From: an uncultured Bacteroidales bacterium
GTDB lineage: Bacteria; Bacteroidota; Bacteroidia; Bacteroidales; WCHB1-69
Reading direction: 5' to 3'
Assembly (NCBI GenBank): GCA_946409645.1
Contig: CAMJXE010000002.1
Location: 15,808 to 79,807, forward strand
DNA: 64,000 nucleotides
Positions 11,623 to 60,693 of the stretch are shown piece after piece (the first letter of the stretch is position 1; every line of letters begins with the position of its first letter). The translations under genes and the position numbers were made by a program. The notes below the pieces were generated by a model. It ran no database searches and was not told where the DNA came from. It was given only the letters and a program-made list of their open reading frames with translations.

Positions 11623-12729
11623 TCAAGATAACTTCACAATCTCCTCATATATCAAATCAATGGCGTTCGGCAGGGCGAAGGTTTTGATGTTCGTGCCGAG
11701 GGTTTCCATCCGATGCGGGTCGTTGACTAACTGTAACATCGTAGGTATCAGCTTCTCCGGTGCGTCTTTGTCGGATATGAGCAGGGCGGCGTCTTTTGTG
11801 GAGAGAGCCTTGGCGTTGAAGGTCTGGTGGTCTTCGGCGGCGTAGGGGAACGGCACGAGGATGGTGGGAGCCCCCACGATGGTCAGCTCCGCCAATGCTA
11901 ATGCGCCTGCGCGGGAGATGATGACGTCAGCCATGCTGTAGGCGTCGTTCATGTTCTTGATGAACGGCACGACATGGATGTGTTCGTCTTGTTGTTTCAG
12001 CAGCTCAGGGTCGATATTTTTGTAGAACTGTTCGCCGGTTTGCCACAACAGCTGCAGGTCGGCTTTGCGGAAAGCGTCCAAATTGGCGGCCATGGTCTGG
12101 TTGAAGGTGCGTGCGCCGAGGCTACCGCCCACCACCAGCACGGTTTTCTTGTCGGGTGAGAAGTTGAAATATTCATACGCCGCTGGTGATTTGCGCTCTA
12201 ATTGCAAGATTTCCTTGCGGATGGGGTTGCCTGTTTTGATGATTTTTTCGGGCGGGAAGAAGCGGTCGAGACCGTCGTACGCGACACAGATGGACTTGGC
12301 TTTCTTGGCCAACATCTTGTTGGTGACTCCAGGGTAGGAGTTCTGTTCTTGCAAAAGCGTGGGAATGCCGAGTTGTGAGGCGGCTTTCAGCGCGGGACCG
12401 CTGGCGAACCCGCCGACGCCGATGGCCAGGTCGGGCTTGAACTCACGCATGATTTTCTTGGCCTTACTCATGGCTTTCATCATCACCATGGGCAGCCGCA
12501 AATTGCACATCAAGCCATTGAGCGATTTCTCGCGGTGGATACCGTAAATCTCCAGTCCTTCAATAGGATAGCCAGCTTCTGGCACTCGCCGCATCTCCAT
12601 TTTATCGCTTGCCCCGATGAAGAGAATCTTGGCATCAGGGTTTTCTGTTTTAATCTTGTTGGCGATGGCCAACGCGGGGAATATGTGCCCGCCGGTGCCG
12701 CCGCCGCTGATGATGTATCTTTTTTCCAT
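11623..12729 (-). CDS. murG: UDP-GlcNAc:undecaprenyl-PP-MurNAc-pentapeptide GlcNAc transferase MurG
   Basis: GGGTGGHIFPALAIA G-loop, GT28 two-domain layout, 368 aa. Confidence 0.88.
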   Translation of the reverse strand: MEKRYIISGGGTGGHIFPALAIANKIKTENPDAKILFIGASDKMEMRRVPEAGYPIEGLEIYGIHREKSLNGLMCNLRLPMVMMKAMSKAKKIMREFKPDLAIGVGGFASGPALKAASQLGIPTLLQEQNSYPGVTNKMLAKKAKSICVAYDGLDRFFPPEKIIKTGNPIRKEILQLERKSPAAYEYFNFSPDKKTVLVVGGSLGARTFNQTMAANLDAFRKADLQLLWQTGEQFYKNIDPELLKQQDEHIHVVPFIKNMNDAYSMADVIISRAGALALAELTIVGAPTILVPFPYAAEDHQTFNAKALSTKDAALLISDKDAPEKLIPTMLQLVNDPHRMETLGTNIKTFALPNAIDLIYEEIVKLS

Positions 12730-12749
12730 AAAGGTTTGGTTTTGCGCCG

Positions 12750-12757
12750 CAAAAATA
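12750..12757 (-). promoter_or_regulatory. -7 promoter box TAttTTTG upstream of murG
   Basis: Reverse complement of caaaaata, ~20 nt before ATG 12729. Confidence 0.45.
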
Positions 12758-12832
12758 CAAAATCATTTTGCAATATCAATTATCAAGTTGTTTTGCTTTT
12801 GCTTATTCAGGAACAAATGATATATCAGCCCA

Positions 12833-15800
12833 CTACCGTTTCACCACCCGTTTGGTGACGGTGCCCTGTTCGGTGGTCACACGCACGAAATAGACACCGG
12901 AGGCATGGGCGGACAGGTCTATAACCGTCTGGTAATCACGTACAAAGTGCTGCTCTAACCGTTTTCCGTACATGTCAAATACCTCCAACTGCTCGATGAG
13001 GTCTTGCTCGTTGCGGACGATGCATTTTCCAGTCGTGGGGTTGGGGTAGAGATGCAAGAGTTGGTCGATGTCACGCTCGGGAACCCCGACATCAGGTCTT
13101 ACGGAGAACACCACGTCGTCGATGAACACCTTGCCCAGATAGGCGGGGCAGTGGTAGCGGAACGCCACATACCGTCCGTCGCCGTTGTAGTGGTCAAGGA
13201 GCACGGAATGCGGTTCCCACACTCCCCAGCTCTGGAGGGTGATGGTATCGACCGGCACGAAGGAGACGGCATCGTAAGGACTGCTCATCACGCCGATGAA
13301 CATCGTGTCCCAGCCCGGAGCAGCACCAGCTTCCTGGAAGTAGCTGAAATCCAGTTGGATGCTGTCGAAGGAGAGATTCGGGGCGAATGCGGGAGTGATG
13401 GCCCAATCATCGCTGAAGGAGTTGGCGAGGAAGAGCATCGACCCGACGCCGCTGGCGGAAACTTCGGACGAAACGATGGGGTAGTAGGAGTAGGATGCAG
13501 GGGTCAGAATGCGGCGCCAACAATCGGGGAAGGCCGTCTCACTGTCTGTTCCGTAGGTGTCGAACGTCTCCGTGTAGGGCAATTGGCTGATAATTCCACA
13601 GTCTGGGGTGATTTCTAACGACTCTGACCATTCCGAATGGCTGTTCGAGCCACAGTCGGTCCGCACGAATATGCGGTACGTTTGTCCGGGAGTCAGGTTA
13701 TCAACGACAAACGAGGTGCTGGCGGTGGCCACCAGGGTTTGGGTGTTGGGAGAAACACCCGGGGCGCAGGCCACATATTCCCATTGTGAAGCACTGCTAT
13801 GCGAGGGCTCGAACGAGATGGCAGCCGAAGTGGAGGTGAGGTCGTGGGCAGTCAAACCGGAGGGTGCATCGCAATCATCTGCTTGATAGACAATCAGATC
13901 GTCAAGCCACATGGCCATATTGGAGGAGTGTAATCCCACCTGTCGGAAGGCGATATGGCGGTTGGTGCCCGTCATCGCCGTGTTGCGGAAATCCACCGTG
14001 ACATCCTGCCAGGTATCAAAATGGGCGATGGAAATAACCTGCACGGATTCAAAAGTCGAAAGGTCGTACGGGTCGCTCATCACCCCCACTTCCATACAGC
14101 CGGCAATATATTCATGGTCAGCAGACAACCGGAACTGCGCCCGCAGCGAATGGATGTCCACCCCGAACGGCTGGGTGACAGCGGTGGCAGTCGTTGACGT
14201 GTCGGAGTGGAAGAGCAGGGCTTTGCTCTCCATGCCGTAATAGCCGTAGGTGTTCCAGTCAATTCTGGGACATTCGGCGTAGGTGACGGGGAAGATCCAG
14301 CAGTCGGGTCTCACAATATAGGAGCTCATCCACGGGTAGTCGTCGAAATTCTCCGAATAGGGCAGATCCACCACGGGGGCGCAAGTTGTCATGAAGGTGG
14401 CGGGGGTACACCACGAACTGCTCGAGCTGCCGCAATCGGACTGCACGAAGACATCGTACATCGTGTTGTCGGCCAAGCCGCCGATAACAATCGGATGAGT
14501 TCCCGTCAGCACAGGTGTGCCGCTCTCAGGTCCATTGCCGTTGGGGACGACCACCACGCGCCAAGCGGTCTCCGATCCGCCGGGTTGCCAATCCACCAAC
14601 ACGCTGTCGTGGGTGATGGGCTCTGCGGTCACATTCGTGGGCAGCGGACAGGCGGAGAGGTAATCCACCGTCAGATTGTCCATGCTGACCGGGGTGAGCG
14701 GATTGGAGAAGTTCTCCTGCATGAAGGCGAGGTAGTGACCGTTGCCGGTGTAGGAAGCCAAACTGACGGTCCTATCAATCCAAGATGTCAGCGCGTAAGG
14801 GTTCGGGAAGACCGTGTCAACAGGCGTGAACGTGGCGAAGTCGTTAGGATCGGTCATCACACCCACCACCAATATGGAGTTGGGGGCTGTCGTGTTGGCT
14901 TTGAACTTGAACGACGCCTGCAAGGTGTTCAGCGGGATAGACGAATCAAATTCGGGCGTGATGGCGACGTTGTGGCCGTTGCTGGGTTGGAAATAGAGCG
15001 AACCCGGTGAGCTGTAAAATCCGTTGGGGAAAATAAACGGATAAGGTGCGACGATATAGGAGGAGTAGAGGCGGCTCCAGCATCTCGGGAATGCGGAGTA
15101 GCCGTCCAGATTGGAGCCGGTGCCGTAGGTGTCAAAGGATTCCATGTAAGGGATATCGGTGATGGTGCCGCAGTCTGTCCTTTGGGAAGTGGAACACCAT
15201 GCACTCTGGCTGTTCCCGCAATTGGTACGCACATAGATGGTGTAGAGTCTGTCTTTGTGCAGATTGTTGAAGGTGTAAGCGGTACTTGTCAGCGCGACAA
15301 TTTGCGTGGTGTCTAAAGGTTGCCCTTCTTCCACAATGACGGCCTCCCAATTCTGGTCGCTGGTGTCGGCGGGGGTGAAGCTGATGCTGATGCTGGTTGT
15401 GGAGGTTGCGGTCACTGTCAGCGTATGAGGTGCGGCGCAGGAACCGCCGTAAATCATGATGTTATCGACGGCACCCGGCGGGTTCGTTCCCTCATAGTGG
15501 CCGTTGCTCCAGAGGAAGTAGAGCCGCTGGTGTCCCGCGTGCGTGGAATCGACCGTGAACGAATGGCTGGTCCATGCGGCATCCGTGTACAGCCCGTTGC
15601 CGAGTTCCTCCAATCCGGAAGGGATAGTGATGGAATAGGTGGCGTTGGGCTCCACAGGGACAGGAGGTCCGAGGAAGATGCGGGTGCGGTCATCGCCGCT
15701 CTGCCCAAGCCCTCGGAAGTCGAAGGCAATCTGGTATTCAGAATATCCTGGGGTGAAATAGATGTCACGATAAGCCCAGGAATTGCTCATAGAGCCATAG

Positions 15801-37954: not shown

Positions 37955-40900
37955 ATGAAAAAGAAATCTATTTTTTGCAGTGTTTTAAGTTTATGTATGA
38001 TGCTGCTTTCGTTTTCAGGATTCGCCCAAATCAACGCCAATGGCGGATTTGAAAGCTGGACGGGTACGTCTCCTGACGGTTGGTTGGGCTCCAAGAGTAA
38101 CATCGCCGCATCCAATGTGGTAAAAGTCACAACTGGTGCACATTCAGGCAATTATGCATGTCAGCTTATTAATACAACCTCGTCACACAAACGTTTTACC
38201 ACCCAAGCCACTCATGTGGACAATGGCACCCAATATGAAATCTCTTTTTGGGTGAAGGGGCAGGGTGAGATTCGTGTGGCGATGTATGACGGTCGCCAAT
38301 CAGGTAGTGGCTATTCATCATACAGCCCATATTATAGCATTAACAGTACCACTTACCAGCAATGCGTTGATACCATTGAAGCAGCCGTTACTACAGATGA
38401 GGGCGAATTTATCCTCTCCTTGCGCAACACGGAAAACGACCATTTGATTGTCGATGACGTGACCATTACGCCCATCACTCCCGAAAATTTTGTGGGGGAA
38501 CCTGTCGCAACCATCTCAGGCACCCAGCAATCCACCGACACTTATTTCGGTTCAGTTATCGTTAGTTTGAGCAGTATCACCGACAATGCCTCCATCTATT
38601 ACACCGTGGACGGTAGCGAACCCACCTCTTCTTCAACACTTTACAACGCTCCTTTCACCATCAACTCTACTACCACGCTAAAGGCTATCGCTATCTTGAA
38701 CGATAACAATAGCACGGTTATGACGAAGACTATCACTATTTTAGACTTCACCCCTATCTACTTTGAAAACTTTGAAACCAACGGGTTGAACCTGATGACA
38801 GTCGTTAACGCTTCAGGGACATATTCTTGGACCACAGGCACTAATAATGGAAACAATTATGCTTATGCCAACGCCTATAACCTCGGTGCATGCGAATCGT
38901 GGTTGATTACACCCGCTATTGTCCCGTTGAATCCCGGCGGTGTGACTATGTCATTTGAAAGTGCAACCAAATATACTGGACCAGCCCTACAAGTAAAGTA
39001 TTCCACCGATTACAGCGGTTCGGGTTCTCCTGCAACGGCTACATGGAATGATATCACCGACGAATTTGTTTTTAGTACAGGCAACAACTGGATTTGGACG
39101 AATTCTGGAGATTTTGATGTTATTGGTACCGCGCCCATCTATTTCGCATGGATCTACACCAGCACAGAATCTTCGGCGGCTGGCTGGCAAATTGACAATA
39201 TCATGGTGTTATCAGGAGCCGCTCCTGTGTTAAATCCCACGCTCACCATCAACGAACCTCAGAACGAATCGGTTTATAGCACGCTCGACACTTTGCATGT
39301 ATCCATTGATATTCAGAATTTCGCCTTGGATACAGATGGATACCTCAAAATAGAATCCAATTTCTTGGAAATCTTTTTGGGAACAAATGTCATCTATTTA
39401 AACCAAATGATGATGGATTTTGTTTCTTTATTCCCTCTTTCTCCGCTGCCTGCCGGTGAGTTCGATTTTACAGCTACTTTGGTGGGCCCGGATTCACTTC
39501 CCATCTCCCCTTCTGTCAGTGTGACCTCTTCATTTTCTGTTATCGCACCAGTGCTCGATGCACCTGTCATTACCGCCACAGGTGAGAGTGCCGGGGCAGA
39601 CAACACCTTCTATTTCAGCTCCACCGTAACCATGACTGCCGACAATAGCGCAGCCATTTACTATACGACCGATGGTACAACCCCGACAGATTCCTCCACG
39701 CTCTACACTGCGCCGTTCCAGATTACGGAGACGAGTACCATCAAGGCTATTGCTGTGAAGGAGAATTATCAGAACAGTGACGTGGCAACTTTCATGGTTA
39801 CCATCACCGCCCCGACTGTGGAGGCCCCTCTATTCACTCCAGGCACTGGCACTTACGCCGACAGTGTAACTTTCAGCATCACTTGCGCAACTGAAGGTGC
39901 GGAGATTCGCTACACCATCGACGGCACCGAACCTGCCGAAACTTCTACGCTTTATTCGGTTCCCGTTTCGTTGACCGCCACCACCACTGTGAAGGCGAAA
40001 GCATTCAAGAGCGATTGGTTCGCCAGCGAGACCGCCACTGCTGTCTATACAGTTGTGTTTGAGCCGGTTTTGACTGTCAGTACTCCTTCATTGAGCTTCA
40101 CAAGTACGCAACTAACCCAGACATTCACCGTGAGTGGCGCACATTTGGACAACCCCATTGTGTTGACTTGCAGTGACGCACATTTCACCTTGAGTCCTAC
40201 CACCATCACCAATCCGAACAGCAACACCGTCGTTACCGTCACTTTTGACGGCACCGAGCCTGCAACGGGCACTGTTTCTTTGGCTTCTGGCACTTTGAGT
40301 GTACAGGTCGCACTGACGGCAACTGCGCAGCTGCCGGCCCCAGTATTTGTACCCGCTACCGATGAAGATACACTTATCACTGTGACCATGACCTGCGCTG
40401 ACCCCACCGCTGAAATCCACTACACCACCGACGGCACCACTCCCACCGCTGCATCCGCCACTTACACGACTCCTCTCATCCTCAGCTCACCGGGAACCTA
40501 CACTCTGAAAGCCCTCGCTGTGAAGACGGGTTGGGAAAACAGCGACATCACCACTGGTAACTACACCGTCACTGTTCCGCCAGCTCCCGATACTGTTAGC
40601 GTGCCCGTGATCACACCTGCCACCAACACTTACTATGAACCGCAAACCGTGACCATCACCTGCACGGATGCCGACGCCGTGATTCGTTATACCATCGATG
40701 GTGCCGAACCGACCGATGCTTCCACTATCTATACCGCGCCGTTCACGGTGACGACCAACAGCACGATTGTGGCCAAAGCATGGAAATCCGGTATGATCCC
40801 GAGCGCCACGGCCTCAGTCTCCATCACCTTCCCCGAACAAGTGTCCAACATCGCCGCCTTCAAGGCCGCTGCCGCCACTGGTGTGGAAAAACAGATTATG

Positions 40901-41917
40901 AGCGATGTGACCTTCGTGTTCCGTAGCGGAAGATACATCTTCGTGGAGGACAACTCCGCCGCGCTGCTCATTTACGACTTCAACACTCCGGTTATCACCA
41001 CTCAATTCAACGAAGGCGATGTGATTGAGGGCGGTATCTTCGGAAAATACAAATTATACAGTGGCATGGTGGAGATGGAACCCACACACAATGCCAACGC
41101 CGCTACCGGAACGCCCGTGACCGTGATGCCGACCACTACCACCATTACAGACATTAAAACGCAATATGCTGACACATACGAGTCCAAATTTGTGAAGTTG
41201 AACGACGTGGTGTTCATCGATGATACCCGATTCGTGCAAAATGGCGATACAATGGCCATTTTCGACCGTTTCAATACCATTACCACGACAATTTCTGCAG
41301 GAGACATAGCCGATGTAACCGGTTTTGTCAGTTACTTCGCTACAAATAATGCCTATCAAATCTTCCCGCGTGACAACAACGATATCGAAATCCATTCGGC
41401 ACCAGTCCTTGACACAGTGGCCACTCCAGAATTCGATTTCTACCGCTCCGGTGAGTTCTATTTCATGAACATTACCTGTTCCACAGATGGAGCTTCTCTT
41501 TATTATACCATCGACAATACTGATCCTGACGAGAATAGTTACGAGTACACCTCTGACGTTCCGTTCTACCTGAATGTCCACTACTATATCAAAGCCATTG
41601 CCATGAAAGAGGGTATGGTCAACAGTGCTATTGCGATGTATGACTACAATCCATCAAGCATTATCACTTACGAGTTGCGCGACAATCTTGTCGTCTATCC
41701 GAATCCTGCCGAAAGCAATGTTTTCATTAATGTGAAAGAGGATGGATTGGATATCGAGAAGGTGGAATTGTACAATCTTTACGGACAACTGTTGAAGAGC
41801 GTCGAGGTCAACAGCAACACTGCGGAATTGGGCATCGGAGCTCTCGCAACGGGTACCTATTATGCGAAGGTTTTCACCAATCGTGGTGTCACTTCGCTGC
41901 CGATTATTCGTAAATAA
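37955..41917 (+). CDS. large T9SS-secreted multidomain protein (1,320 aa)
   Basis: Signal peptide and N-terminal jelly-roll-like INANGGFESWTG..GW region. Six copies of a ~75-aa unit with I(Y/R/H)YT(x)DG(x)(x)P...STLY..PF......(K/A)A(I/K)A (chitobiase/hexosaminidase C-terminal-like). OB-fold-like segment. C-terminal VYPNPAESNVFINV...GTYYAKV sorting domain. Confidence 0.85.
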   Translation: MKKKSIFCSVLSLCMMLLSFSGFAQINANGGFESWTGTSPDGWLGSKSNIAASNVVKVTTGAHSGNYACQLINTTSSHKRFTTQATHVDNGTQYEISFWVKGQGEIRVAMYDGRQSGSGYSSYSPYYSINSTTYQQCVDTIEAAVTTDEGEFILSLRNTENDHLIVDDVTITPITPENFVGEPVATISGTQQSTDTYFGSVIVSLSSITDNASIYYTVDGSEPTSSSTLYNAPFTINSTTTLKAIAILNDNNSTVMTKTITILDFTPIYFENFETNGLNLMTVVNASGTYSWTTGTNNGNNYAYANAYNLGACESWLITPAIVPLNPGGVTMSFESATKYTGPALQVKYSTDYSGSGSPATATWNDITDEFVFSTGNNWIWTNSGDFDVIGTAPIYFAWIYTSTESSAAGWQIDNIMVLSGAAPVLNPTLTINEPQNESVYSTLDTLHVSIDIQNFALDTDGYLKIESNFLEIFLGTNVIYLNQMMMDFVSLFPLSPLPAGEFDFTATLVGPDSLPISPSVSVTSSFSVIAPVLDAPVITATGESAGADNTFYFSSTVTMTADNSAAIYYTTDGTTPTDSSTLYTAPFQITETSTIKAIAVKENYQNSDVATFMVTITAPTVEAPLFTPGTGTYADSVTFSITCATEGAEIRYTIDGTEPAETSTLYSVPVSLTATTTVKAKAFKSDWFASETATAVYTVVFEPVLTVSTPSLSFTSTQLTQTFTVSGAHLDNPIVLTCSDAHFTLSPTTITNPNSNTVVTVTFDGTEPATGTVSLASGTLSVQVALTATAQLPAPVFVPATDEDTLITVTMTCADPTAEIHYTTDGTTPTAASATYTTPLILSSPGTYTLKALAVKTGWENSDITTGNYTVTVPPAPDTVSVPVITPATNTYYEPQTVTITCTDADAVIRYTIDGAEPTDASTIYTAPFTVTTNSTIVAKAWKSGMIPSATASVSITFPEQVSNIAAFKAAAATGVEKQIMSDVTFVFRSGRYIFVEDNSAALLIYDFNTPVITTQFNEGDVIEGGIFGKYKLYSGMVEMEPTHNANAATGTPVTVMPTTTTITDIKTQYADTYESKFVKLNDVVFIDDTRFVQNGDTMAIFDRFNTITTTISAGDIADVTGFVSYFATNNAYQIFPRDNNDIEIHSAPVLDTVATPEFDFYRSGEFYFMNITCSTDGASLYYTIDNTDPDENSYEYTSDVPFYLNVHYYIKAIAMKEGMVNSAIAMYDYNPSSIITYELRDNLVVYPNPAESNVFINVKEDGLDIEKVELYNLYGQLLKSVEVNSNTAELGIGALATGTYYAKVFTNRGVTSLPIIRK

Positions 41918-41942
41918 GAAACCTCTTTAGGAAGATATTGAA

Positions 41943-41971
41943 ACGGACGCACGCGTTGCGTCCGTTTTTTT
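41943..41971 (+). terminator. rho-independent terminator after the 1,320-aa gene
   Basis: ACGGACGCA-cgcgt-TGCGTCCGT 9-bp stem followed by TTTTTTT. Confidence 0.8.
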
Positions 41972-42120: not shown

Positions 42121-43311
42121 ATGAAAACCCATATTCTAAGAAACAAATGCGCACAATACAGGGCGCCGCAAATAGCAAAAGAAAAAGGAATTTATCCATA
42201 TTATAAGGCGATAGAGTCCGAACAAAGCACTGTGGTGAGGATAAACGGCAAAAATGTGCTGATGTTCGGCTCAAACAGCTATCTCGGTCTCTCAAACGAC
42301 CCGCGTCTGAAGGAAGCCGCAAAGGCCGCCATCGACAAATACGGCACCAGCTGCTCTGGTTCTCGCTTTCTTAACGGTACTCTTGACATTCATGTTGAAT
42401 TGGAAAATAAACTCGCCAAATTGGTAGGCAAAGATGAAGCTGTCTGTTTCAGCACGGGATTCCAAGTGAATTTGGGAGTGGTGTCCGCGCTGTGCGGCCG
42501 CAACGACTACTTGTTGCTCGACAGGCTCAACCACGCCTCCATCATAGAGGGCAGCCGTTTGGCATTTGCCAAATCGTTGAAATATGCTCACAATGACATG
42601 GGAAATTTGGAGAAGTGTTTGCAACAATGCGAACCCGAATCCATCAAGCTGATTGTCGCTGATGGGGTGTTTTCCATGGAGGGCGATATTGTTCCGCTAC
42701 CTGAAATGGTGGCATTGGCTGAGAAATATGATGCCGACATCATGCTCGACGACGCCCACTCTTTGGGTGTTTTGGGGCATCAGGGAAGAGGAACAGCTGA
42801 CTATTTCGGTTTAACCGATAAAGTCGATCTCATAATGGGTACCTTCTCGAAGTCGTTCGGCTCATTGGGCGGTTTCATCGCGGCCGATTTCGACACCATC
42901 AACTATCTGAAACACAATGCTCGCTCGTTGATATTTAGCGCCAGTATGCCGCCTTCCAACGTGGCTTCGGTGAGCAAGGCAATCGATATCATGTTGGATG
43001 AACCTGAGCGCATCCAACATCTTTGGGACGTAAGCCATTATGCCCATAAACAATTCAAAGAGAGAGGATTTGAGACGGGACGTAGCGAAACACCCATCAT
43101 TCCTCTGTTTGTGCGGAATTCGGAGAAAGCTTTCTGGCTCTGCTCACACTTGCTGGAAGATGGCGTTTTCGTCACACCGGTCATCGCACCTGCCGTGCCC
43201 GAAAACGACGTGCTGATACGATTTGCTCTGATGGCCACACACACCTACGAACAGGTGGATGAGGCTATCGACAAGATTACCAAAGCATTTAAGGAAGCCG
43301 GTGTTATTTAG
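42121..43311 (+). CDS. PLP-dependent alpha-oxoamine synthase, serine palmitoyltransferase-like (Spt / cysteate-acyltransferase family)
   Basis: 396 aa. MFGSNSYLGL, GSRFLNGTLDIHVELE, FSTGFQVNLG, DGVFSMEGD, DDAHSLG and the GTFSKS PLP-lysine motif. Closest by memory to Bacteroidota Spt rather than BioF or KBL. Confidence 0.8.
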   Translation: MKTHILRNKCAQYRAPQIAKEKGIYPYYKAIESEQSTVVRINGKNVLMFGSNSYLGLSNDPRLKEAAKAAIDKYGTSCSGSRFLNGTLDIHVELENKLAKLVGKDEAVCFSTGFQVNLGVVSALCGRNDYLLLDRLNHASIIEGSRLAFAKSLKYAHNDMGNLEKCLQQCEPESIKLIVADGVFSMEGDIVPLPEMVALAEKYDADIMLDDAHSLGVLGHQGRGTADYFGLTDKVDLIMGTFSKSFGSLGGFIAADFDTINYLKHNARSLIFSASMPPSNVASVSKAIDIMLDEPERIQHLWDVSHYAHKQFKERGFETGRSETPIIPLFVRNSEKAFWLCSHLLEDGVFVTPVIAPAVPENDVLIRFALMATHTYEQVDEAIDKITKAFKEAGVI

Positions 43312-43313
43312 TC

Positions 43314-44108
43314 ATGGTCGTTCTCATCACAGGCATTTCGTCAGGTTTTGGTTTAGAAACCGCCCGGCTTTTGTCGCAGGAAGGGCATATTGTGTATGGT
43401 ACGGTCCGTCGTGAGGTGGAACCGATTCCTGGAGTGCATTACCTGAGAGTGGATGTGCGCGACCGTGAAGCTGTGAAAAGTACTGTGCAACAGGTGTTTG
43501 ACAAAGAAGGCCGTATTGATGTGCTGGTCAATAATGCTGGCATGGGCATCGGTGGACCAGTGGAATTTGCCACCGAAGAGGAAATACGGGAGCAGATGGA
43601 TACTAACTTCATGGGATTAGTGCATTTCGTGACGGCCGTGCTACCCGTTATGCGCAATCAAGGGGCAGGCAAAATCATCGCTTTGAGCTCTATCGGAGGG
43701 GTGATGGGACTGCCGTTCCAAGGTTTTTATTCTGCCAGTAAATTCGCCATCGAAGGCTACTGCGAAGCATTGCGACTTGAAATCCAACAGTTTGGCATCC
43801 AAGTTGTTGTTGTTCGTCCTGGCGATTTTTCCACGAGTTTCACGGCCAGTCGGAAAAAGACCGTCAACACCAAAGCTATGCAAGCCTACAAAACCTACGC
43901 CGAATCCATAGGGAAGGTGGAACACGACGAAACCAGCGGATTAAAACCGCAAGTGTTAGCTCGCAAAATCAGCCAAATCATTCGTAAGAAACATCCGCAC
44001 CTCGGTTATGTAGTGGCATCGTTCGAGCAACGCCTTTCCGTACTGCTCAAACGCACTCTACCCGCACGGTGGTTCGGAAAAATTCTTGGTAGTTATTACA
44101 AATTGTAA
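43314..44108 (+). CDS. classical short-chain dehydrogenase/reductase
   Basis: TGISSGFG, NNAG and S...YSASK motifs. Starts 3 nt after the Spt-like gene's stop. Confidence 0.85.
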   Translation: MVVLITGISSGFGLETARLLSQEGHIVYGTVRREVEPIPGVHYLRVDVRDREAVKSTVQQVFDKEGRIDVLVNNAGMGIGGPVEFATEEEIREQMDTNFMGLVHFVTAVLPVMRNQGAGKIIALSSIGGVMGLPFQGFYSASKFAIEGYCEALRLEIQQFGIQVVVVRPGDFSTSFTASRKKTVNTKAMQAYKTYAESIGKVEHDETSGLKPQVLARKISQIIRKKHPHLGYVVASFEQRLSVLLKRTLPARWFGKILGSYYKL

Positions 44109-44133
44109 CCAATCAAGTCCTCCCCTCTTTACC

Positions 44134-45249
44134 TTACACATGCCGTCTATATGCTCTTCTGCGCATAAACGGATTGGTCTTGTACTCCCCGAACAGCGTC
44201 TGCACCTTGTAGTTCTCCTCCAATTGAGGGTTCATGATGATAGTCTTGATACCCCGCTTGATACAGTTCTCATGCAGGTACTTGAACAACAGCATTGGTA
44301 TTCCACATTGTTGATACTCAGGCATCACACCCATTATGAGTGCCTCCAACGTGTCGTTTTTCTTCAACGCCTTCATAATATGAATAAAGCCGAAGGGGAA
44401 AAGGCGACCGTTGGACTTCTTCACCGCTTGGGAGAGTGAAGGCACGCAGAAAAGGAAACCTACCGGCTGGTCTTTCTCGTTGACCGCCACTGCCACAAAG
44501 TCTTTGTCCAAAATGGGCACATAAGTCTTGAGGTATGCATCTATCTGCTTGTCTGTCAAGGGTGAAAAACCATGCAACGGGGCGAAAGACTCATTGTACA
44601 TGTGAAAAATCTCCATGCCGTAACGCTTGCTCAAGTCTTTCATGCTTTTGGGCTGCACAACATGAGACTTCGACCGCTCTTCTACCAAATTAGCAAAGCG
44701 GAACATGGGCGGCAGTTTGGGATTCACCTCCAAAGTTCGCTGGGTCCAATCGACTTCTTTCACAAAACCGAGTTTCTCTAACATCGGGCCGTAATAGGAA
44801 TAGTTGTAGAGGCAGGTAAACGGGCTCAAATGCTCGAAACCCTCCACCAACAAGCCTTCTTTGTCCATGTCGGTAAAGCCCCACGGACCTCGCATGTCGG
44901 TGCGACCTCGTTGTTTGCCCCATTCAGCGACAGTGTCAATCAACGCTTTCAGTACTGCTTCGTCCTCTATGAAATCGAGCCAACCGAAACGGACGAGGTG
45001 CTGATCGTCATCGGCTTTGTGGTTGATGATGGCAGCAACGCGACCCACAATCTCATTGCCACGAAACGCTAAAAAGCAATCTGCTTCACAGAAGTCGTAG
45101 GCTCCGTTTTTCTCTGGATTGAAGGTGTCGTATTCATCGCCTTCCAAAGCAGGCACCCAATTTTCACAATCTTTATAAAGATGTAGTGGAAAAGTCACAA
45201 ATTGCTTCAGCTGCTTGCGACTTTCAACTTTGACAATGTTTATATTCAT
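44134..45249 (-). CDS. GNAT-fold-like acyltransferase family protein (~370 aa), function unknown
   Basis: C-terminal GVMPEYQQCGIPMLLF resembles GNAT motif A. Clear paralog of 58703-59839. Confidence 0.6.
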   Translation of the reverse strand: MNINIVKVESRKQLKQFVTFPLHLYKDCENWVPALEGDEYDTFNPEKNGAYDFCEADCFLAFRGNEIVGRVAAIINHKADDDQHLVRFGWLDFIEDEAVLKALIDTVAEWGKQRGRTDMRGPWGFTDMDKEGLLVEGFEHLSPFTCLYNYSYYGPMLEKLGFVKEVDWTQRTLEVNPKLPPMFRFANLVEERSKSHVVQPKSMKDLSKRYGMEIFHMYNESFAPLHGFSPLTDKQIDAYLKTYVPILDKDFVAVAVNEKDQPVGFLFCVPSLSQAVKKSNGRLFPFGFIHIMKALKKNDTLEALIMGVMPEYQQCGIPMLLFKYLHENCIKRGIKTIIMNPQLEENYKVQTLFGEYKTNPFMRRRAYRRHV

Positions 45250-45309
45250 AATTTCCTATTTGTACAAAATCTAATATTAAGCAATAAGCTACTGACAATA
45301 GCTTAACCA

Positions 45310-45552
45310 TTAATCCGTCACATGCGAACTAATGTAGTCAATCACTTCGCCTACTGTATTGAATTTGGGTGTACCTTCGAACTTGAAAGCGAATTTGTTC
45401 TCAACAGCAAGGCTGAGCAACAGGATGGTGAGCGAATCAAGCCCTACATCGCGAACGAGTTGCGAATCCTCGTTTATGGAAGTCATATCCATGGAGGGTT
45501 TAATCAGGACAAGGACTTCTTTCAATCCTTCAAAGATAGTCTCTCTTTCCAT
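45310..45552 (-). CDS. acyl carrier protein (dedicated, cluster-encoded)
   Basis: 80 aa. DVGLDSLTILLL carries the phosphopantetheine-attachment Ser (DSL motif). Confidence 0.8.
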   Translation of the reverse strand: MERETIFEGLKEVLVLIKPSMDMTSINEDSQLVRDVGLDSLTILLLSLAVENKFAFKFEGTPKFNTVGEVIDYISSHVTD

Positions 45553-45555
45553 ATT

Positions 45556-47052
45556 TTATTGATTACGTGAAACTTTCAGAGCTCCAGTGCGTTTGAAATC
45601 TTCCTTGCGCACAGTGATTTTACTAACTTGGTGCGTGCTCGGGAGCGTAGCGTTGACCTTGCCGACCAAATCTTTGAAATAGGCCTCCACTTCTTCCCAA
45701 GGAGCGTTACCGAATTCATCCATGCGCGGCAGAATCTCGATGGCAATCACCTGGCGACCGTCGAGTTCGTCTTCTTTCACAAGGCAATCGCGGACTTTAT
45801 TGTCATCATAGAATGGTTCCTCGATGCTTTCGGGACAGACATTCTCCCCGTTGGAAAGGATGATGAGGTTCTTGATTCGCCCAACGATATACATAAAGCC
45901 CTCTTCGTCGAAGCGGACGAGGTCGCCAGTTTTGACCCAGCCGTCGGGTGTAAGCGTTTCGGCGGTCTTTTCGGGTTCGCCGTAGTAGCCGAGGAAGACG
46001 TTGTCGCCGCGGAACCACAATTCGCCATCGACCACCTTAGCTTCTTGTTCGGGATAGAGCTTGCCAACGGATGTGGGTCTGGATTTCACGTCGACATTGC
46101 CAGTGGTGAGGTTGGCACCCTCTGTCATGCCATAGCCGGCGAAGAGGTGGATGCCTATTTCGTCGAATTCGCCGATGAGCTTCGGGGGCACATTGGCCGC
46201 ACCAGAAATGATAACTTGCAACTCGCCACCCAGGAACTGTTTACCATACATCTTGACAAGCCCCATCATGATTTCACAAATGCCAGGAACAGCCACCAAC
46301 ATAGTGGGCTTGATAACGGGCAACTTACCGATAGTATCTTTGGTGTTACCGGCTGAATACCATGCGGCACCTTTGTAAAGGACAGACAAAGTGCTGTAAA
46401 TCAATCCAAAAACATGACTAAGAGGCAACACGCATGCATAACGGTGACAACCTAATTGGTGTCCTGGAGCATACAATCCGTTCAAAGCACCGCGTAACAA
46501 TGCACGATGCGGCAGAATAGCCCCCTTGGGTGCGCCTGTTGTGCCGCCTGTGAAAAAGATGGCAGCGGGATCGTCCTTATCTACTGTGGCGACCGGTGCG
46601 GCGTGGTCAGCGCAATCCGCAATGGCGATGACCTTGCAAGGAGCTTCTTTCATCGTTTCCATAAAGGTGGGACCGACGGCTAAGACCTTCACTCCGTACT
46701 TCATACAGCAACCTTTGATGGCTTCCGCAGGTAGCATGGCGGGAAGGTTGATGGCCACAAAGCCCGCTGAAGTGGCAGCAAGAAACATCTCCACGGCCTC
46801 AACGGTAGAGTTATCCAAAATGGCCACTTTGTCGCCTTTTTGTAACTCTAAATCGTTGAGTAATGCGCGTTTACATGCTACCGTATCGCAGACTTGCTTA
46901 TAAGTATAAGTGTTCACCGTGTCTGAAAGACAAGGCAAATCGGACCATTTCTGCTCAATCCAAGTTACAAATTCGGGAAAAGTGGGGATGTACTTCACCT
47001 GCGCGAGCTCCTCGGCGGGAAGCATAGACGGGAAATAATTATCCGCTCTCAT
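45556..47052 (-). CDS. AMP-dependent synthetase/ligase (fatty acyl-AMP / acyl-ACP synthetase-like)
   Basis: FFTGGTTGAPKGA AMP-binding motif, GYGMTE, TGD. Its stop codon lies 3 nt before the ACP ATG. Confidence 0.85.
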   Translation of the reverse strand: MRADNYFPSMLPAEELAQVKYIPTFPEFVTWIEQKWSDLPCLSDTVNTYTYKQVCDTVACKRALLNDLELQKGDKVAILDNSTVEAVEMFLAATSAGFVAINLPAMLPAEAIKGCCMKYGVKVLAVGPTFMETMKEAPCKVIAIADCADHAAPVATVDKDDPAAIFFTGGTTGAPKGAILPHRALLRGALNGLYAPGHQLGCHRYACVLPLSHVFGLIYSTLSVLYKGAAWYSAGNTKDTIGKLPVIKPTMLVAVPGICEIMMGLVKMYGKQFLGGELQVIISGAANVPPKLIGEFDEIGIHLFAGYGMTEGANLTTGNVDVKSRPTSVGKLYPEQEAKVVDGELWFRGDNVFLGYYGEPEKTAETLTPDGWVKTGDLVRFDEEGFMYIVGRIKNLIILSNGENVCPESIEEPFYDDNKVRDCLVKEDELDGRQVIAIEILPRMDEFGNAPWEEVEAYFKDLVGKVNATLPSTHQVSKITVRKEDFKRTGALKVSRNQ

Positions 47053-47081
47053 TCTTGTAAGGTTTAATTATAAATAGAGTG

Positions 47082-47089
47082 CAAATATA
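47082..47089 (-). promoter_or_regulatory. -7 promoter box TAtaTTTG upstream of the ligase-ACP genes
   Basis: Reverse complement of caaatata, ~30 nt before ATG 47052. Confidence 0.45.
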
Positions 47090-47114
47090 GCATTTTTATT
47101 TAAAAAAGGCCTAA

Positions 47115-48044
47115 CTATTTTCGAAGCACCCATTCGTGATAGGAACCGACGTTACCATTCCCGAAATCGTAGCCGAGGTAACCCAGTATGATATTGGCAA
47201 CAAATTGTTCCGGCAAACAACGGAACATCAGTTTGGCAAGTTTCTGTTTTTGCATGATTTTGCCTGCCTTTTGCTCCAGTCGTTTGAGATCTGGAAGAAT
47301 TTCTCGGGTGTAATCGGTGTCCTGTTCGATGGTCAGGCCGCTATTGGTATAATGGGCATGCATCTGCTCTAAAGATTCGATGATGGCAGCAGCTCCTCCT
47401 TTGGATATAAGCGCGATAACTTTCTGTATATGAGGATTGAACGAATCAAAGTCCGCATCAAGGGCGTAGTCATAAACAATGAACACCCCATTGGGTTTCA
47501 ATATGCGATAAACCTCCTTGTATATTTTCTCCTTGTCGGTGTTATGGACAATGGTTTCTATGGCATAAACCACATTTATGGAATTGTCCTCAAATTGAGG
47601 AAGCGTGCTGTAGTCCTGTTGGAAAGTGCAGATGTTTTGAGGCGGATTCTTCTTTTTGAGACGTTCGAGGTCGCAACCGTAGAACTGCGCGTCGGGATGC
47701 CTGTTTGCCAGATACACGATGTTTGAGCCCTGACCGAAGCCCAATTCCACAACTTTGGCGTTTTCTGTGATAAATTGGGAGATAAAGTTTGGCTGATGAT
47801 AGACATCCTGATCAGAGTAAACCCCGTTCTTGGAAATTCTGAAATGCATAAAGCCATCTTGGGAGTGGAACTTCTTGTATGCCCAATGGTTGATTCTGTA
47901 ATAAGATAAGATCTGTTTCTGAGAGTTCTTATCGCCTTTGATAAATTTCTCTAAATCAACAAATTGCGACATATAATCTATCTTGGCTTGTAGCTGATTA
48001 ATACTTTCTTGCGAACTCATAATACTATAGGAAATATCGTACAT
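47115..48044 (-). CDS. class I SAM-dependent methyltransferase
   Basis: VVELGFGQG (motif I), followed by acidic-loop and post-I motifs. 309 aa. Confidence 0.8.
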   Translation of the reverse strand: MYDISYSIMSSQESINQLQAKIDYMSQFVDLEKFIKGDKNSQKQILSYYRINHWAYKKFHSQDGFMHFRISKNGVYSDQDVYHQPNFISQFITENAKVVELGFGQGSNIVYLANRHPDAQFYGCDLERLKKKNPPQNICTFQQDYSTLPQFEDNSINVVYAIETIVHNTDKEKIYKEVYRILKPNGVFIVYDYALDADFDSFNPHIQKVIALISKGGAAAIIESLEQMHAHYTNSGLTIEQDTDYTREILPDLKRLEQKAGKIMQKQKLAKLMFRCLPEQFVANIILGYLGYDFGNGNVGSYHEWVLRK

Positions 48045-48163: not shown

Positions 48164-48883
48164 ATGGATTCCTTTATGAATACGAACCCGCACTTGTCGC
48201 CAAAAATGAAGATGGCCGATGCTATCAATCAGTATCACAGTTTGTTAACTGTGCTTCCGAGACTGGGAATGCCCCTTGGTTTTGGGGAGAAAAGCGTGGA
48301 ACAGCTCTGCGCGGAGCACCATGTCTCGCTACCGCTCTTCACGCTCATCAGTCGCATCTATATCCAGACCAACTATTTCCCCAGCATCGATGAACTGCGG
48401 CAATGCCCTATGCAGGATCTTTTGCAATACCTTTACCAATCGCATAAAGACTATTTAGAAAACAAATTTCCGCATATCGAGCAGCACCTCAGCAAGTTAC
48501 TCGAGCCGATGGACAAGAAATACAGCACCCTCATCGCTAACTTCTATGCAACGTTCAAGGAAAAGCTGGTAAAGCATTTCCAGTATGAAGAGGAGGTGAT
48601 TTTCCCCTACATGCGGCAGTTCATGTCCGAAAATGTGAACGCTGACAGCGACTCGCGCCACTCTAACGCTTTCCGCGAGCAACATGACGACATTGAAGAC
48701 ACGCTTAACGACCTTACAAACCTGTTACTCAAGTATATACCATCCAACAGTTCCTCTTCGGAGCGGGTTGATATGCTGATGGACATGTACTCTCTTTCGA
48801 GTGATATCGAGCGGCATGCCATGATGGAGGACCGCATTCTGCTTCCTTATATCCAGTACTTAGAATCGCAGTGCCATGATTAA
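48164..48883 (+). CDS. hemerythrin-like (HHE cation-binding) domain protein
   Basis: Repeated H..(E/D) patterns (SHKDYLENKFPHIEQH, HFQYEEEVIFPYM, EQHDDIED, ERHAMMEDRILLPYI), typical of di-iron hemerythrin/RIC-type domains. Confidence 0.6.
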   Translation: MDSFMNTNPHLSPKMKMADAINQYHSLLTVLPRLGMPLGFGEKSVEQLCAEHHVSLPLFTLISRIYIQTNYFPSIDELRQCPMQDLLQYLYQSHKDYLENKFPHIEQHLSKLLEPMDKKYSTLIANFYATFKEKLVKHFQYEEEVIFPYMRQFMSENVNADSDSRHSNAFREQHDDIEDTLNDLTNLLLKYIPSNSSSSERVDMLMDMYSLSSDIERHAMMEDRILLPYIQYLESQCHD

Positions 48884-49466
48884 GATAGCCATAGCTGAAC
48901 CATCCCAGATGCTGCGGCTTGGTCTCGGTAACATGCTGCGCGAACTGCCCGAGGTGGAGATCGTTTTCTCCACCGATAACCTCAATTCTCTGAATGCCAG
49001 GATATCCGCCCTTCATCCTGACATTTTGATTCTCAACCCGCAGCTGTACGAGTACGCCCGCCGCGCCACCATCCGTGCCGAGTTCGACCAACTTCCCAAC
49101 CTCCGTTTCGTCGGCCTCATCTCCTCCTATTGCGACTCGCAGCACCTCAAGCAATTCTCCGGTCTCATCGAACTTAATGACGATCTCCAGCGCGTGAAAT
49201 CCACCATCAACCAAGTGATCGGCGCCATTCAAAACGATTCCGACGAACCCGACACAGACCCCCTCTCCGACCGCGAAAAGGAGGTGCTCATCTGTCTTTC
49301 CAAAGGACTGAAAAACAACGAAATAGCCGACACACTCAACATCTCCGTCCACACCGTTATCACCCACCGCAAAAACATCGTCCGCAAAACCGGCATCAAG
49401 TCCGTCGCCGCCCTCACCGTCTATGCCATTCTGAACAACCTCATCGAAGAAAAAGACATTATTTAG
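48876..49466 (+). CDS. LuxR/GerE-type HTH regulator with atypical (non-phosphorylatable-looking) receiver-like N-terminus
   Basis: C-terminal LSDREKEVLICLSKGLKNNEIADTLNISVHTVITHRKNI. The N-terminus has IAIAEPS where DD is expected, and DILILNPQL where the acceptor Asp is expected. Overlaps the upstream gene by 8 nt. Confidence 0.75.
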   Translation: MIKIAIAEPSQMLRLGLGNMLRELPEVEIVFSTDNLNSLNARISALHPDILILNPQLYEYARRATIRAEFDQLPNLRFVGLISSYCDSQHLKQFSGLIELNDDLQRVKSTINQVIGAIQNDSDEPDTDPLSDREKEVLICLSKGLKNNEIADTLNISVHTVITHRKNIVRKTGIKSVAALTVYAILNNLIEEKDII

Positions 49467-58702: not shown

Positions 58703-59839
58703 ATGACGCAAATTATTGAGATAAAAGAAGTTAAAAGCAACGAGGACTTGAAGCGTTTTATACAATTCCCCCGAAAAATATACAAAACCTGTCCGTATTA
58801 TGTCCCGGCTCTGGACAAAGGCGAGGAAAAACTGCTGACCAAACACCCCGCTTTAGCGTTCTGCGACCTACGGATGTGGCTCGCCTTCCGCAACGACGAA
58901 GTGGTCGGGCGCATCGCGGGCATCATCAACCGAAGGTGCAACGAAATCAAAGGACAAAAGCGCATCCGCTTCGCCTGGTTCGATGTCATAGAGGACTTTG
59001 AAGTGACTAAAAAGCTGTTCGAAACTGTGGAAGATTGGGGGAAGTCGGAAGGTTTGGAAGAGATTTGCGGTCCGTCGCGCTACTCCAACATGGAGAAGCA
59101 AGGCATGCTGGTGGACGGCTTCGACCACATCACCTCTTTGGGTGCCGAATATAATTACCCATATTACCCTGAATACATGGACCTTATAGGTTTCGAAAAG
59201 GAAGTGGATTATCTCCAGTACAAGGTAAAAGTCACTCCTGTTTCCGAACGTATTTCCCATATAGCCGAACTCGTAGGCCAAAAGTATCATGTTCGTTTGC
59301 GTGAAATCAAAGACAAAGCACAGTTGAAAAAAGACGGCTACGCCTTTTTGGAAGTCTTAAACGAAAGCTATCACGATATTTTCAATTTCATCCCGCTCAC
59401 CCACGAAGAAATGACTTGGATTATCGACGAAAACCTTTCCGTGGGTGTTTTGGATTTGATATCTTTTCTGGAAGATGAAAACGGTAGATTAGTCGGCATC
59501 GCCATGAGCATACCTTCATTGAATCAGGCCTTTAGAAAGGCTAACGGTCATTTGTGGCCCTTCGGTATGTTCCATCTGTTGCACGGGTTGCATCACAACA
59601 AAAACGTGGATTTGTTACTCACGGGAGTGCTGCCCGAGTACTTGCACACCGGTATCCATGCTATCTACCATAAACAACTCCACGAAGCCTTCCTGCGACA
59701 TGGATTCGAATACGCTTACACGTCGCAGCAACTCGAAAACAATATCGCTGCTCGCATCTGGCAGAAATACGACGCGGAGATCATTTCAAGACGCCGCTGC
59801 TATGTGAAAAGAATGGATGATTTGAGAATTGATAATTGA
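58703..59839 (+). CDS. GNAT-fold-like acyltransferase family protein, paralog of 44134-45249
   Basis: Colinear similarity over the full length (FPxxxYKxCxxxVPAL, LAFRxxEVVGRIAxIIN, IRFxWFDxIED, NYxYY, GFxKEVD, PFGxxH, GVxPEY). Confidence 0.6.
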   Translation: MTQIIEIKEVKSNEDLKRFIQFPRKIYKTCPYYVPALDKGEEKLLTKHPALAFCDLRMWLAFRNDEVVGRIAGIINRRCNEIKGQKRIRFAWFDVIEDFEVTKKLFETVEDWGKSEGLEEICGPSRYSNMEKQGMLVDGFDHITSLGAEYNYPYYPEYMDLIGFEKEVDYLQYKVKVTPVSERISHIAELVGQKYHVRLREIKDKAQLKKDGYAFLEVLNESYHDIFNFIPLTHEEMTWIIDENLSVGVLDLISFLEDENGRLVGIAMSIPSLNQAFRKANGHLWPFGMFHLLHGLHHNKNVDLLLTGVLPEYLHTGIHAIYHKQLHEAFLRHGFEYAYTSQQLENNIAARIWQKYDAEIISRRRCYVKRMDDLRIDN

Positions 59840-59922
59840 TAATTATTGGGGTAGTAGTTTTCTCATCGCATTATCGCATCAAAACCCAATATCCCAAATC
59901 CACAGTCATAAGTCAAAATCCA

Positions 59923-60693
59923 ATGAAAAACAGGTATGTCATAATCACAGGAGCGAGCAAAGGGTTGGGCCGAGAAATCGCGCTGGAATTAGCGCGGAAA
60001 GACTTCCCTACCCTATTGGTCAGTTCCACGGAAGCCGTGCATGCGGTGCGTGAGGAAATTATCCAAAAGTATTCGGTTGATTGCCAATCGTTTGTCGTAG
60101 ATTTATCGGACGAAAACGCAGTGCAGGAATGGACGGCTTGGGTCAATGATCATTTTGCTGTTTCTATACTTGTCAACAATGTGGGTACAGGCGGCAGCCG
60201 CGCCATCGAAACCGCCGACATGGATTACCTGCTACGCATTTTGCACCTCAACGTATTGTGTACCACTATCTTGACAAAAGCAATGCTTTCCAACCTACTG
60301 CAACACACACCCGCTCATATCCTGAACATTGGCAGCATGTCGGGATTCACGCCCTCGGCTTACAAGACAGTCTATCCTGCCTCGAAAGCCTACGTACACG
60401 CCTTTTCGAAATGTTTGCGCGAGGAATTGAAAGATACTGGCGTGTCGGTAACATTGGCCGCGCCTGGAGCAATGGCCACAAACCCGGAAATCTGCGAACG
60501 CATTGAGAAACAGGGCTTTTTCGGTCGCGCGACGCTGAAATCCACCTCGGAAACCGCCCGCAAATACGTGGACGGCATGCTCCGTGGCAAACGCCAGATT
60601 ATCCTCAACCCGATCAGCTACTCCCTCACGAAAATTCTCCCCGAACGCTGGCGCATCTCTCTTCTCTCCCGCATCCTGAAACGCGAATTGTAA
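59923..60693 (+). CDS. classical short-chain dehydrogenase/reductase
   Basis: ATG at 59923 gives MKNRYVIITGASKGLG (TGxxxGxG), NNVG, S...YPASK. The track start at 59836 looks over-extended. Confidence 0.8.
   Translation: MKNRYVIITGASKGLGREIALELARKDFPTLLVSSTEAVHAVREEIIQKYSVDCQSFVVDLSDENAVQEWTAWVNDHFAVSILVNNVGTGGSRAIETADMDYLLRILHLNVLCTTILTKAMLSNLLQHTPAHILNIGSMSGFTPSAYKTVYPASKAYVHAFSKCLREELKDTGVSVTLAAPGAMATNPEICERIEKQGFFGRATLKSTSETARKYVDGMLRGKRQIILNPISYSLTKILPERWRISLLSRILKREL

Follow-up and report, generated by a model that had tools for sequence, protein, structure and literature searches.

Which lipid would be made by a gene cluster that joins a serine palmitoyltransferase (Spt) to an acyl carrier protein (ACP) of its own, and which of its enzymes would that carrier serve? 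The question is raised by a locus of an uncultured Bacteroidales bacterium (lineage WCHB1-69; GenBank assembly GCA_946409645.1, contig CAMJXE010000002.1, positions 15,808 to 79,807). This stretch of 64,000 nucleotides is referred to here as the window. An earlier note, made from its letters alone, described six open reading frames (ORFs) in two convergent groups, and all six were found with the same positions and spacings. The plus strand carries an Spt-like synthase (42121-43311, 396 amino acids) and, after a spacer of 2 nt behind the Spt stop, a short-chain dehydrogenase/reductase (SDR; 43314-44108, 264 amino acids). The minus strand carries a tandem-GNAT protein, hereafter GNAT1 (44134-45249, 371 amino acids), an ACP (45310-45552, 80 amino acids) with its ATG 3 nt past the stop codon of the ligase, an adenylate-forming (ANL) ligase (45556-47052, 498 amino acids), and a class I S-adenosylmethionine methyltransferase (47115-48044, 309 amino acids). 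The two groups converge, with their stops 25 nt apart in the ORF listing. Pfam and NCBIfam profile searches upheld the family calls of all six.

The conserved unit is five genes, not six, and the methyltransferase is the gene left out. The reading modestly favored here is that the five would form a dihydroceramide-synthesis unit, in which the ligase-loaded ACP supplies the GNAT of the ceramide synthase (CerS) family and not Spt.

The synthase and its reductase

By sequence, the synthase is a bona fide serine palmitoyltransferase of the Bacteroidota type, predicted to condense L-serine with a C15-C17 acyl thioester. It matches the alpha-oxoamine synthase (AOS) fold (PF00155, E = 2.9e-56), and its 658.4 bits exceed the cut-off of 640 set for the NCBIfam equivalog NF047600 SerpalmtaseCFB. 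With the Spt of Sphingobacterium multivorum (SmSpt; 3A2B/8GUH) it shares 59% identity, at 529 bits. The corresponding scores are 231 bits against SulA (7U7H) and 242 bits against the CapB-type Cysteate-C-fatty acyltransferase (28EH). The pyridoxal phosphate (PLP)-binding lysine K244 (in TFSKS), H213, and N137/H138 are intact.

In the active site, SulA and Spt differ by a single residue, Lys281 of SulA, 30 residues after the PLP-lysine (Radka et al., PMC9304779). In the window's synthase, the residue 30 positions past the PLP-lysine is Ala274, in FSASM, as it is in SmSpt by an ungapped alignment. The equation of Ala274 with Lys281 comes from this spacing and from the SmSpt alignment of PMC9304779, without a direct SulA alignment. 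Because K244 and Ala274 in FSASM match SmSpt, the enzyme is read as an Spt and not as a cysteate acyltransferase.

Other members of the superfamily were considered and rejected. The score was 387 bits for BioF (cut-off 426), 396 bits for KBL (cut-off 460), and 217 bits for CqsA-type enzymes (cut-off 428). A SulA/CapB identity was rejected on Ala274 and on the low scores to those two enzymes. The neighborhoods discussed below come from a survey of the 80 closest Spt loci of species-representative genomes, and the synthase falls within the Bacteroidota Spt clade. The Spt type proposed in the earlier note is thus borne out by the equivalog cut-off, the SmSpt score, and the active-site residues. 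Its alternative of a capnoid or sulfonolipid is excluded by Ala274, the same cut-off, and the 529 bits to SmSpt against 231-242 to SulA and CapB.

The SDR is probably a 3-ketodihydrosphingosine reductase, a KdsR-like classical SDR. Its best NCBIfam match, over the full length, is NF049977 KdsR (BT_0972 type) at 331.9 bits, below the family cut-off of 400. The motifs TGxxxGxG, NNAG, Ser125/126, and Y139xxxK143 are intact. No similarity was found to the epimerase-type CerR of Escherichia coli BL21, and the window's cluster holds no NAD-dependent epimerase/dehydratase-family (CerR-type) protein. The Spt-SDR pair is old, and its adjacency is kept across Bacteroidales, Marinilabiliales, and Prolixibacteraceae. 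The best match, the motifs, and this adjacency agree with the partner reductase first proposed and make it likely to be a ketosphinganine reductase.

The tandem-GNAT protein

GNAT1 is assigned by sequence to the YghO/CC_1154 family of bacterial ceramide synthases, with N-acylation of 3-ketosphinganine or sphinganine as its predicted reaction. It aligns with YghO of E. coli BL21(DE3) at 29% identity (residues 3-371 against 8-380, E = 8e-42). PMC9386255 gives yghO (ECD_02850) as orthologous to CC_1154 of Caulobacter, which encodes the ceramide-synthase N-acyltransferase, and the assignment of GNAT1 depends on the equivalence stated there. An alignment of 15 diverse YghO-family members has 19 invariant columns.

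Pfam returns only faint GNAT matches for GNAT1, and a sequence search of the PDB gave no match. The AlphaFold2 model (pLDDT 89.1, pTM 0.86) has a tandem-GNAT fold, and its best PDB fold matches, at about 0.6 TM, are the tandem-GNAT N-acyltransferases 5KF1, 2WPW, 7Q3A, and MshD. No solved structure of a YghO-family protein was among the PDB sequence and fold search results. Homologue searches of the cluster's proteins returned only generic names, e.g., 'N-acetyltransferase' and 'acyl--CoA ligase'. The candidate N-acyltransferase of about 370 amino acids that the earlier note had guessed from its GNAT-like look is sustained by the full-length YghO homology and the fold.

The family is large, with more than 6,600 clusters at 90% identity and several paralogues per genome. 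Metagenome loci of sphingomonads contain full-length GNAT1 homologues at a distance of 6-9 kb from spt. In Chitinophaga, Pedobacter, Mucilaginibacter, and Anaerophaga, homologues come directly 3' of Spt or of the Spt-SDR pair. Within the spt clusters of sphingomonads, Chitinophaga, and Pedobacter, they stand where CerS is expected.

The acyl carrier protein and the ligase

The ACP matches PF00550, with further NCBIfam ACP matches sub-threshold. It has a DSL motif with Ser40, and its helix II is less acidic than that of AcpP or AcpR. The ligase matches PF00501, and the ANL core motifs A3, A5, A7, A8, and A10, including the A10 lysine, are intact. These motifs, with the ACP-ligase adjacency seen in relatives, support the proposed coupling of a dedicated 80-residue ACP to an adenylating ligase.

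Orthology to the rhodobacterial pair AasR/AcpR was ruled out when the proteins were aligned with those of BL21(DE3). Against AasR, the ligase shows 26% identity over 454 amino acids with 97 gaps (60 bits), and the ACP is 32% identical to AcpR over 44 amino acids, around the DSL motif only. Since the first similarity is only at the superfamily level and the second is confined to the attachment site, ligase and ACP are not orthologous to AasR and AcpR and appear to be independently recruited. The ligase had no match in 80 sphingomonad spt loci; aasR of sphingomonads is located far from spt (PMC9386255). The analogy that the earlier note drew with the alphaproteobacterial ACP therefore stands for function but not for descent, as the pair is not AasR/AcpR and its conserved partner is the GNAT and not Spt.

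An exhaustive HMMER scan places the ligase within a distinct subfamily of about 500 amino acids, whose full-length relatives grade from 59% to about 35% identity. The contexts of nine relatives were inspected. An ACP is directly downstream in six and nearby in one; another (P0242) sits on a short contig that ends in an uncharacterized partial ORF past the ligase. Relatives whose ligase is as little as 43% identical still have an ACP behind it. The further partner varies: ligases of 59% and 44% identity go with a YghO-family GNAT of about 372 amino acids, those of 45% and 43% with a PlsC-type acyltransferase, and at 38% the partner is DegV, a fatty-acid-binding protein. These ties to ACPs, PlsC-type acyltransferases, and DegV point to fatty-acid substrates and ACP loading, and the ligase would be an acyl-ACP synthetase for the adjacent ACP.

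In the two relatives of 43-45% identity, the PlsC-type acyltransferase gene precedes the ligase-ACP pair (locus L170, 4122-7913; locus L178, 3654-5991). A radical-SAM/SPASM protein also precedes the pair in L170. Such arrangements suggest that ligase and ACP together serve as a general unit that supplies acyl donors to lipid acyltransferases of several types.

Conservation of the five-gene unit

In 19 of the 80 loci, a GNAT1-type GNAT, an ACP, and the ligase adjoin Spt, and all but one of these (L015) also have the SDR (18 loci). The ligase and ACP are restricted to one terminal clade of rumen Bacteroidales. Most of the relatives share the window's layout, with Spt-SDR converging on GNAT-ACP-ligase. 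In L022, the order is Spt-SDR-ligase-ACP-GNAT in a single tight co-directional operon. The slightly more basal L030 runs GNAT2-Spt-SDR-ligase-ACP, with a PlsC-like gene next; GNAT2 denotes another YghO-family paralogue found beside Spt. Because the linkage occurs in 19 loci and, with L030, survives rearrangement, the five-gene arrangement is not chance. The closest genomes are metagenome-assembled genomes (MAGs) of uncultured rumen Bacteroidales from the RUG, RGIG, and deer series, and contigs identical or nearly identical to the window are present in several rumen and gut metagenomes.

Only one GNAT1-type gene occurs without ligase and ACP, in L021, where Spt-SDR is present. This gene (12024-13156, minus strand, 72% identity) is split into two ORFs of 160 and 217 amino acids, which may reflect decay after loss of the ligase and ACP, or an assembly error. 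Two Spt loci come from one assembly in three cases: L015 and L021 (CAJODA01), L022 and L029 (CACXXW01), and L071 and L073 (Chitinophaga filiformis ZLX-1). This suggests Spt paralogy or, for the MAGs, chimerism. At least two MAGs combine a triad-linked Spt locus with a second Spt-SDR locus that has GNAT2 (L022 with L029) or the decayed GNAT1 (L015 with L021), which hints at two parallel ceramide routes.

The methyltransferase, which the earlier note had counted in the pathway, is ruled out as a cluster member by synteny. It has only Pfam methyltransferase domains, with no NCBIfam family at cut-off, and among the related ligase-bearing loci it was found nowhere but on the contig of the window itself (L001). 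Almost every related locus has a different gene upstream of its ligase. In the window, the gap between methyltransferase and ligase holds a TAnnTTTG motif that resembles the Bacteroidetes -7 element, about 35 nt upstream of the ligase. The promoter search was a simple scan for TAnnTTTG and is suggestive only, a sigma-70 scanner being unsuited since Bacteroidetes promoters differ. The unit is delimited to five genes because the methyltransferase is missing from relatives, the upstream neighbor varies, and this motif precedes the ligase.

The ligase-ACP-GNAT triad

In a tree of the YghO family, the GNATs linked to a ligase group in a clade of their own, apart from the Spt-adjacent GNAT2, from the window's further paralogue, and from the proteobacterial and Chitinophagia clade. 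The identities of GNAT, ligase, and ACP drop together, from 100/100/100 through 60-63/58-63/49-57 to 39/44, where the ACP is below the detection threshold. Three contigs of 11-17 kb (L180, L181, and L184) carry the complete triad, with the ACP following the ligase and the GNAT on the ligase's other side (ACP<-ligase <-> GNAT). No Spt or KdsR-like SDR was found by tblastn on these three contigs.

Because the identities fall in step, triads occur without a nearby Spt, and the L021 gene is split, the triad is best described from these comparisons as an autonomous, co-evolving module that joined Spt-SDR in the window's rumen clade. The conserved partner of the ligase and ACP is accordingly the GNAT and not Spt.

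Proposed pathway and its alternatives

The proposed pathway has two modules, Spt with the KdsR-like SDR and the triad of ligase, ACP, and tandem-GNAT protein. Spt would condense serine with a long-chain acyl thioester to 3-ketosphinganine, which the SDR would reduce to sphinganine; the reduction may come before or after N-acylation. The ligase would adenylate a free fatty acid and load it on the phosphopantetheine arm of the dedicated ACP. The GNAT would then transfer the acyl group from the ACP to the amino group of the sphingoid base, yielding (dihydro)ceramide. A private ACP pool would keep the N-acyl chain apart from housekeeping fatty-acid synthesis, and in the rumen exogenous fatty acids could pass straight into ceramide. 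We infer that the ligase loads the ACP and that the GNAT, not Spt, is the acyl-ACP client, and likewise the identities of the fatty acid and the amine acceptor.

In Bacteroidetes, the N-acyltransferases and Spt/SulA have been argued to use acyl-ACP, with CoA thioesters having no role in lipid synthesis (PMC9304779). The proposed N-acylation from acyl-ACP fits the argument made there that N-acyl chains come from acyl-ACP. Several points weigh against the pathway. Characterized CerS enzymes are described as acyl-CoA N-acyltransferases, and the dedicated ACP of Rhodobacteria feeds Spt and not CerS (PMC9386255). Given the description of CerS as acyl-CoA-dependent, a CerS that depends on ACP would be new. 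The client of the ACP could vary, as L030 places ligase and ACP behind Spt-SDR but has the other GNAT paralogue upstream and a gene of the PlsC type downstream. Since some triads have no Spt nearby, the acceptor may be something other than a sphingoid base. The SDR misses the KdsR cut-off, although the next family reaches only 228 bits, and MAG chimerism could affect the observations of two Spt loci per genome.

An unlikely but serious alternative follows the logic of AcpR. The ligase-loaded ACP would be the acyl donor of Spt, and the GNAT would draw on acyl-CoA or housekeeping acyl-ACP. ACP-fed Spt is known in the long-chain-base synthesis of Caulobacter, E. coli BL21, and Sphingomonas, where rhodobacterial Spt prefers the acyl-AcpR made by AasR (PMC9386255). 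SulA, an Spt relative from a member of the Bacteroidales, also uses acyl-ACP (PMC9304779), and in L022 and L030 the ligase and ACP come directly after Spt-SDR in the same operon. The absence of orthology to AasR and AcpR, by the comparisons given above, nevertheless speaks against it. The window's ACP is not upstream of spt, unlike acpR, and is co-directional with the GNAT on the strand opposite to Spt. The ligase and ACP also stay and co-diverge with the GNAT where there is no Spt within 11-17 kb.

It is rather improbable that the triad makes a non-sphingolipid N-acyl amine lipid, e.g., an N-acyl amino acid, and that the two convergent operons are functionally independent. Such a product would suit the autonomy of the triad elsewhere, the several YghO paralogues per genome of a large family (a second one lies in the window), and the service of ligase-ACP relatives to PlsC-type acyltransferases. 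Against this, the triad is linked to Spt in 19 species-level genomes, in three gene orders, and in L022 in a single operon. The YghO-family members found with a described function are ceramide synthases. The missing Spt beside some triads says little, since Bacteroidales sphingolipid genes are usually dispersed.

A pathway of all six genes, methyltransferase included, leading to a methylated amino-lipid or sphingoid product is very improbable. The methyltransferase is co-directional with the ligase, 62 nt upstream of it, and weakly resembles Mtf2, phthiotriol methyltransferase, and cyclopropane fatty acid synthase, all far under their cut-offs. Its absence from every other ligase-bearing locus, the changing upstream neighbor, and the promoter-like TAnnTTTG in the gap oppose its membership. 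Negligible in probability is a sulfonolipid (capnine) pathway of a SulA/CapB-type cysteate acyltransferase and a CapC-type reductase, for although the AOS-SDR adjacency resembles CapB-CapC and SulA uses acyl-ACP (PMC9304779, PMC10191378), the synthase has Ala274 at the SulA-defining Lys281 position, scores far higher to SmSpt, passes the Spt cut-off, and has no cysteate synthase among its called neighbors.

The dihydroceramide pathway can be extended to the family. Tentatively, and with clearly less confidence, the triad may represent a branch of the bacterial ceramide synthases that depends on ACP, has so far gone unrecognized, and is widespread among the Bacteroidales of gut and rumen. This branch would channel free fatty acids of dietary or biohydrogenation origin through a private ACP into the N-acyl chain of ceramide.

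Comparison with known systems

The ceramide cluster of Rhodobacteria (Caulobacter CC_1154/CC_1162-1165; E. coli BL21(DE3) yghO-aasR-cerR-acpR-spt) has the same five functions as the window's unit: Spt, reductase, YghO-family CerS, specialized ACP, and ACP-loading ligase. The proteins differ in several respects. The window's Spt falls in the Bacteroidota subgroup and is 38% identical to sphingomonad Spt. Its reductase is a KdsR-like classical SDR and not an epimerase-type CerR. Its ligase is a non-FAAL ANL enzyme of about 500 amino acids, whereas AasR is of the FAAL type with about 560. The window's ACP lies between ligase and GNAT, whereas acpR immediately precedes spt in one operon. Genetic coupling of the ligase and ACP is to the CerS homologue and not to Spt, whereas in Rhodobacteria cerS is always in an operon separate from aasR, cerR, acpR, and spt (PMC11324152). 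In the literature, the Spts of Bacteroidetes act on acyl-CoA, and those of Rhodobacteria on the specialized AcpR loaded by AasR (PMC11324152, PMC9386255).

Bacteroides and Porphyromonas (BT_0870 Spt, BT_0972 KDSR) have an Spt of the same subfamily, and their KdsR is the best match of the window's SDR. In Bacteroides the genes are dispersed and a dedicated ACP or ligase is not described (PMC9278070, PMC11334938), whereas in the window they are clustered with the ligase-ACP-CerS triad. The SulA/CapB and CapC system likewise places an AOS-family condensing enzyme beside an SDR, and SulA uses acyl-ACP. The window differs from it in the marker residue, Ala and not Lys, in a sequence far nearer Spt, and in the lack of a cysteate synthase among the called neighbors.

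YghO-family genes next to Spt in other Bacteroidota represent the same protein family beside the same Spt subfamily. Those of the Chitinophaga/Pedobacter operon and GNAT2 of Bacteroidales share 26-41% identity with GNAT1 and fall into other clades of the family, and among them ligase and ACP occur only in L030. The remark in the earlier note that Bacteroidota Spt genes are orphan is true of Bacteroides and Porphyromonas but not across the phylum, where Spt-SDR and Spt-GNAT adjacency is widespread; the acyl-CoA dependence stated with it is itself a matter of dispute (PMC9304779). A pathway clustered in Bacteroidales does go against the statements that the genes are dispersed (PMC11334938, PMC9278070).

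No description of such an arrangement was found in the literature searched, where the only work joining ceramide synthase and acyl-ACP in bacteria is that on Caulobacter. The components are of known kinds. What appears to be new, by sequence comparison, is the clustering of Spt, KdsR, and CerS in Bacteroidales, a non-orthologous ACP and ligase, and the coupling of an ACP to a CerS paralogue.

Other sphingolipid loci in the survey

In Chitinophaga, Pedobacter, and Mucilaginibacter (L059, 9998-18082; L062; L053), Spt is clustered with a YghO-family CerS, an epimerase-type CerR-like reductase, and a myo-inositol-1-phosphate synthase, with GtrA and DUF5686 further on. The adjacent CerR-like reductase and inositol-phosphate synthase make the Chitinophaga/Pedobacter cluster a recognizable sphingolipid operon. 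By its gene content, it is read as an inositol-sphingolipid pathway whose genes are clustered, which conflicts with the statement that sphingolipid genes are unclustered in Bacteroidota.

GNAT2 beside Spt is paired with a GlsA/OlsF-N-like lyso-lipid O-acyltransferase (PF19576) in four loci (L029, 8036-10023; L030, 6072-8059; L026, 4445-6429; L034, 11977-13986). In L026, a confirmed CDP-alcohol phosphatidyltransferase follows the SDR, and at the same position L029 has an unscanned gene of 234 amino acids. These GNAT2-O-acyltransferase loci look like an operon for acyloxyacyl phospho-dihydroceramides of the Porphyromonas gingivalis type. The plasmid collection held no proteobacterial spt clusters.

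Neighboring genes in the window

A second YghO-family paralogue of 378 amino acids lies at 58703-59839 on the plus strand and is 35% identical to GNAT1 over the full length. The start of a second classical SDR (59836-60693, plus strand, 285 amino acids; PF00106, not KdsR-like) overlaps the end of this gene. The pair (58703-60693) has no counterpart in the 80 Spt loci. It possibly serves related lipid chemistry, with an N-acyltransferase and a reductase, and is outside the cluster proper.

Upstream of Spt, at 37955-41917 on the plus strand, is a gene for a protein of 1320 amino acids with CBM_4_9, Fn3_assoc, and CHB_HEX_C domains. Its C-terminal tail resembles a type IX secretion system sorting signal, with no domain match shown for the tail. 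Between this gene and Spt, a GC-rich hairpin with a T-run (41935-41970; GGACGCACGCGTTGCGTCCGTTTTTTT) is likely a terminator that insulates the Spt operon. On the far side of the cluster (48164-49466, plus strand), a hemerythrin-domain gene overlaps a gene for a GerE/LuxR-type regulator, and the two are divergent from the methyltransferase. TAnnTTTG motifs for both directions occur in their common intergenic region.

Significance

The sphingolipids of Bacteroidota affect the immunity and metabolism of the host, but what follows Spt is poorly defined in the phylum, where the genes are reported as unclustered. The locus provides, in five genes, a compact and testable set for an entire ceramide core in an uncultured, abundant rumen lineage, and it points to Bacteroidales paralogues that are candidates for CerS. 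A further suggestion is that sphingolipid synthesis took on a dedicated carrier protein independently of Rhodobacteria and at a different step. If acyl-ACP does feed CerS, the assumed acyl donor of the CerS family would change from acyl-CoA to a dedicated acyl-ACP. This would explain how exogenous fatty acids are routed into specific ceramide species, and rumen Bacteroidales would run a second, salvage-type ceramide pathway beside the standard one.

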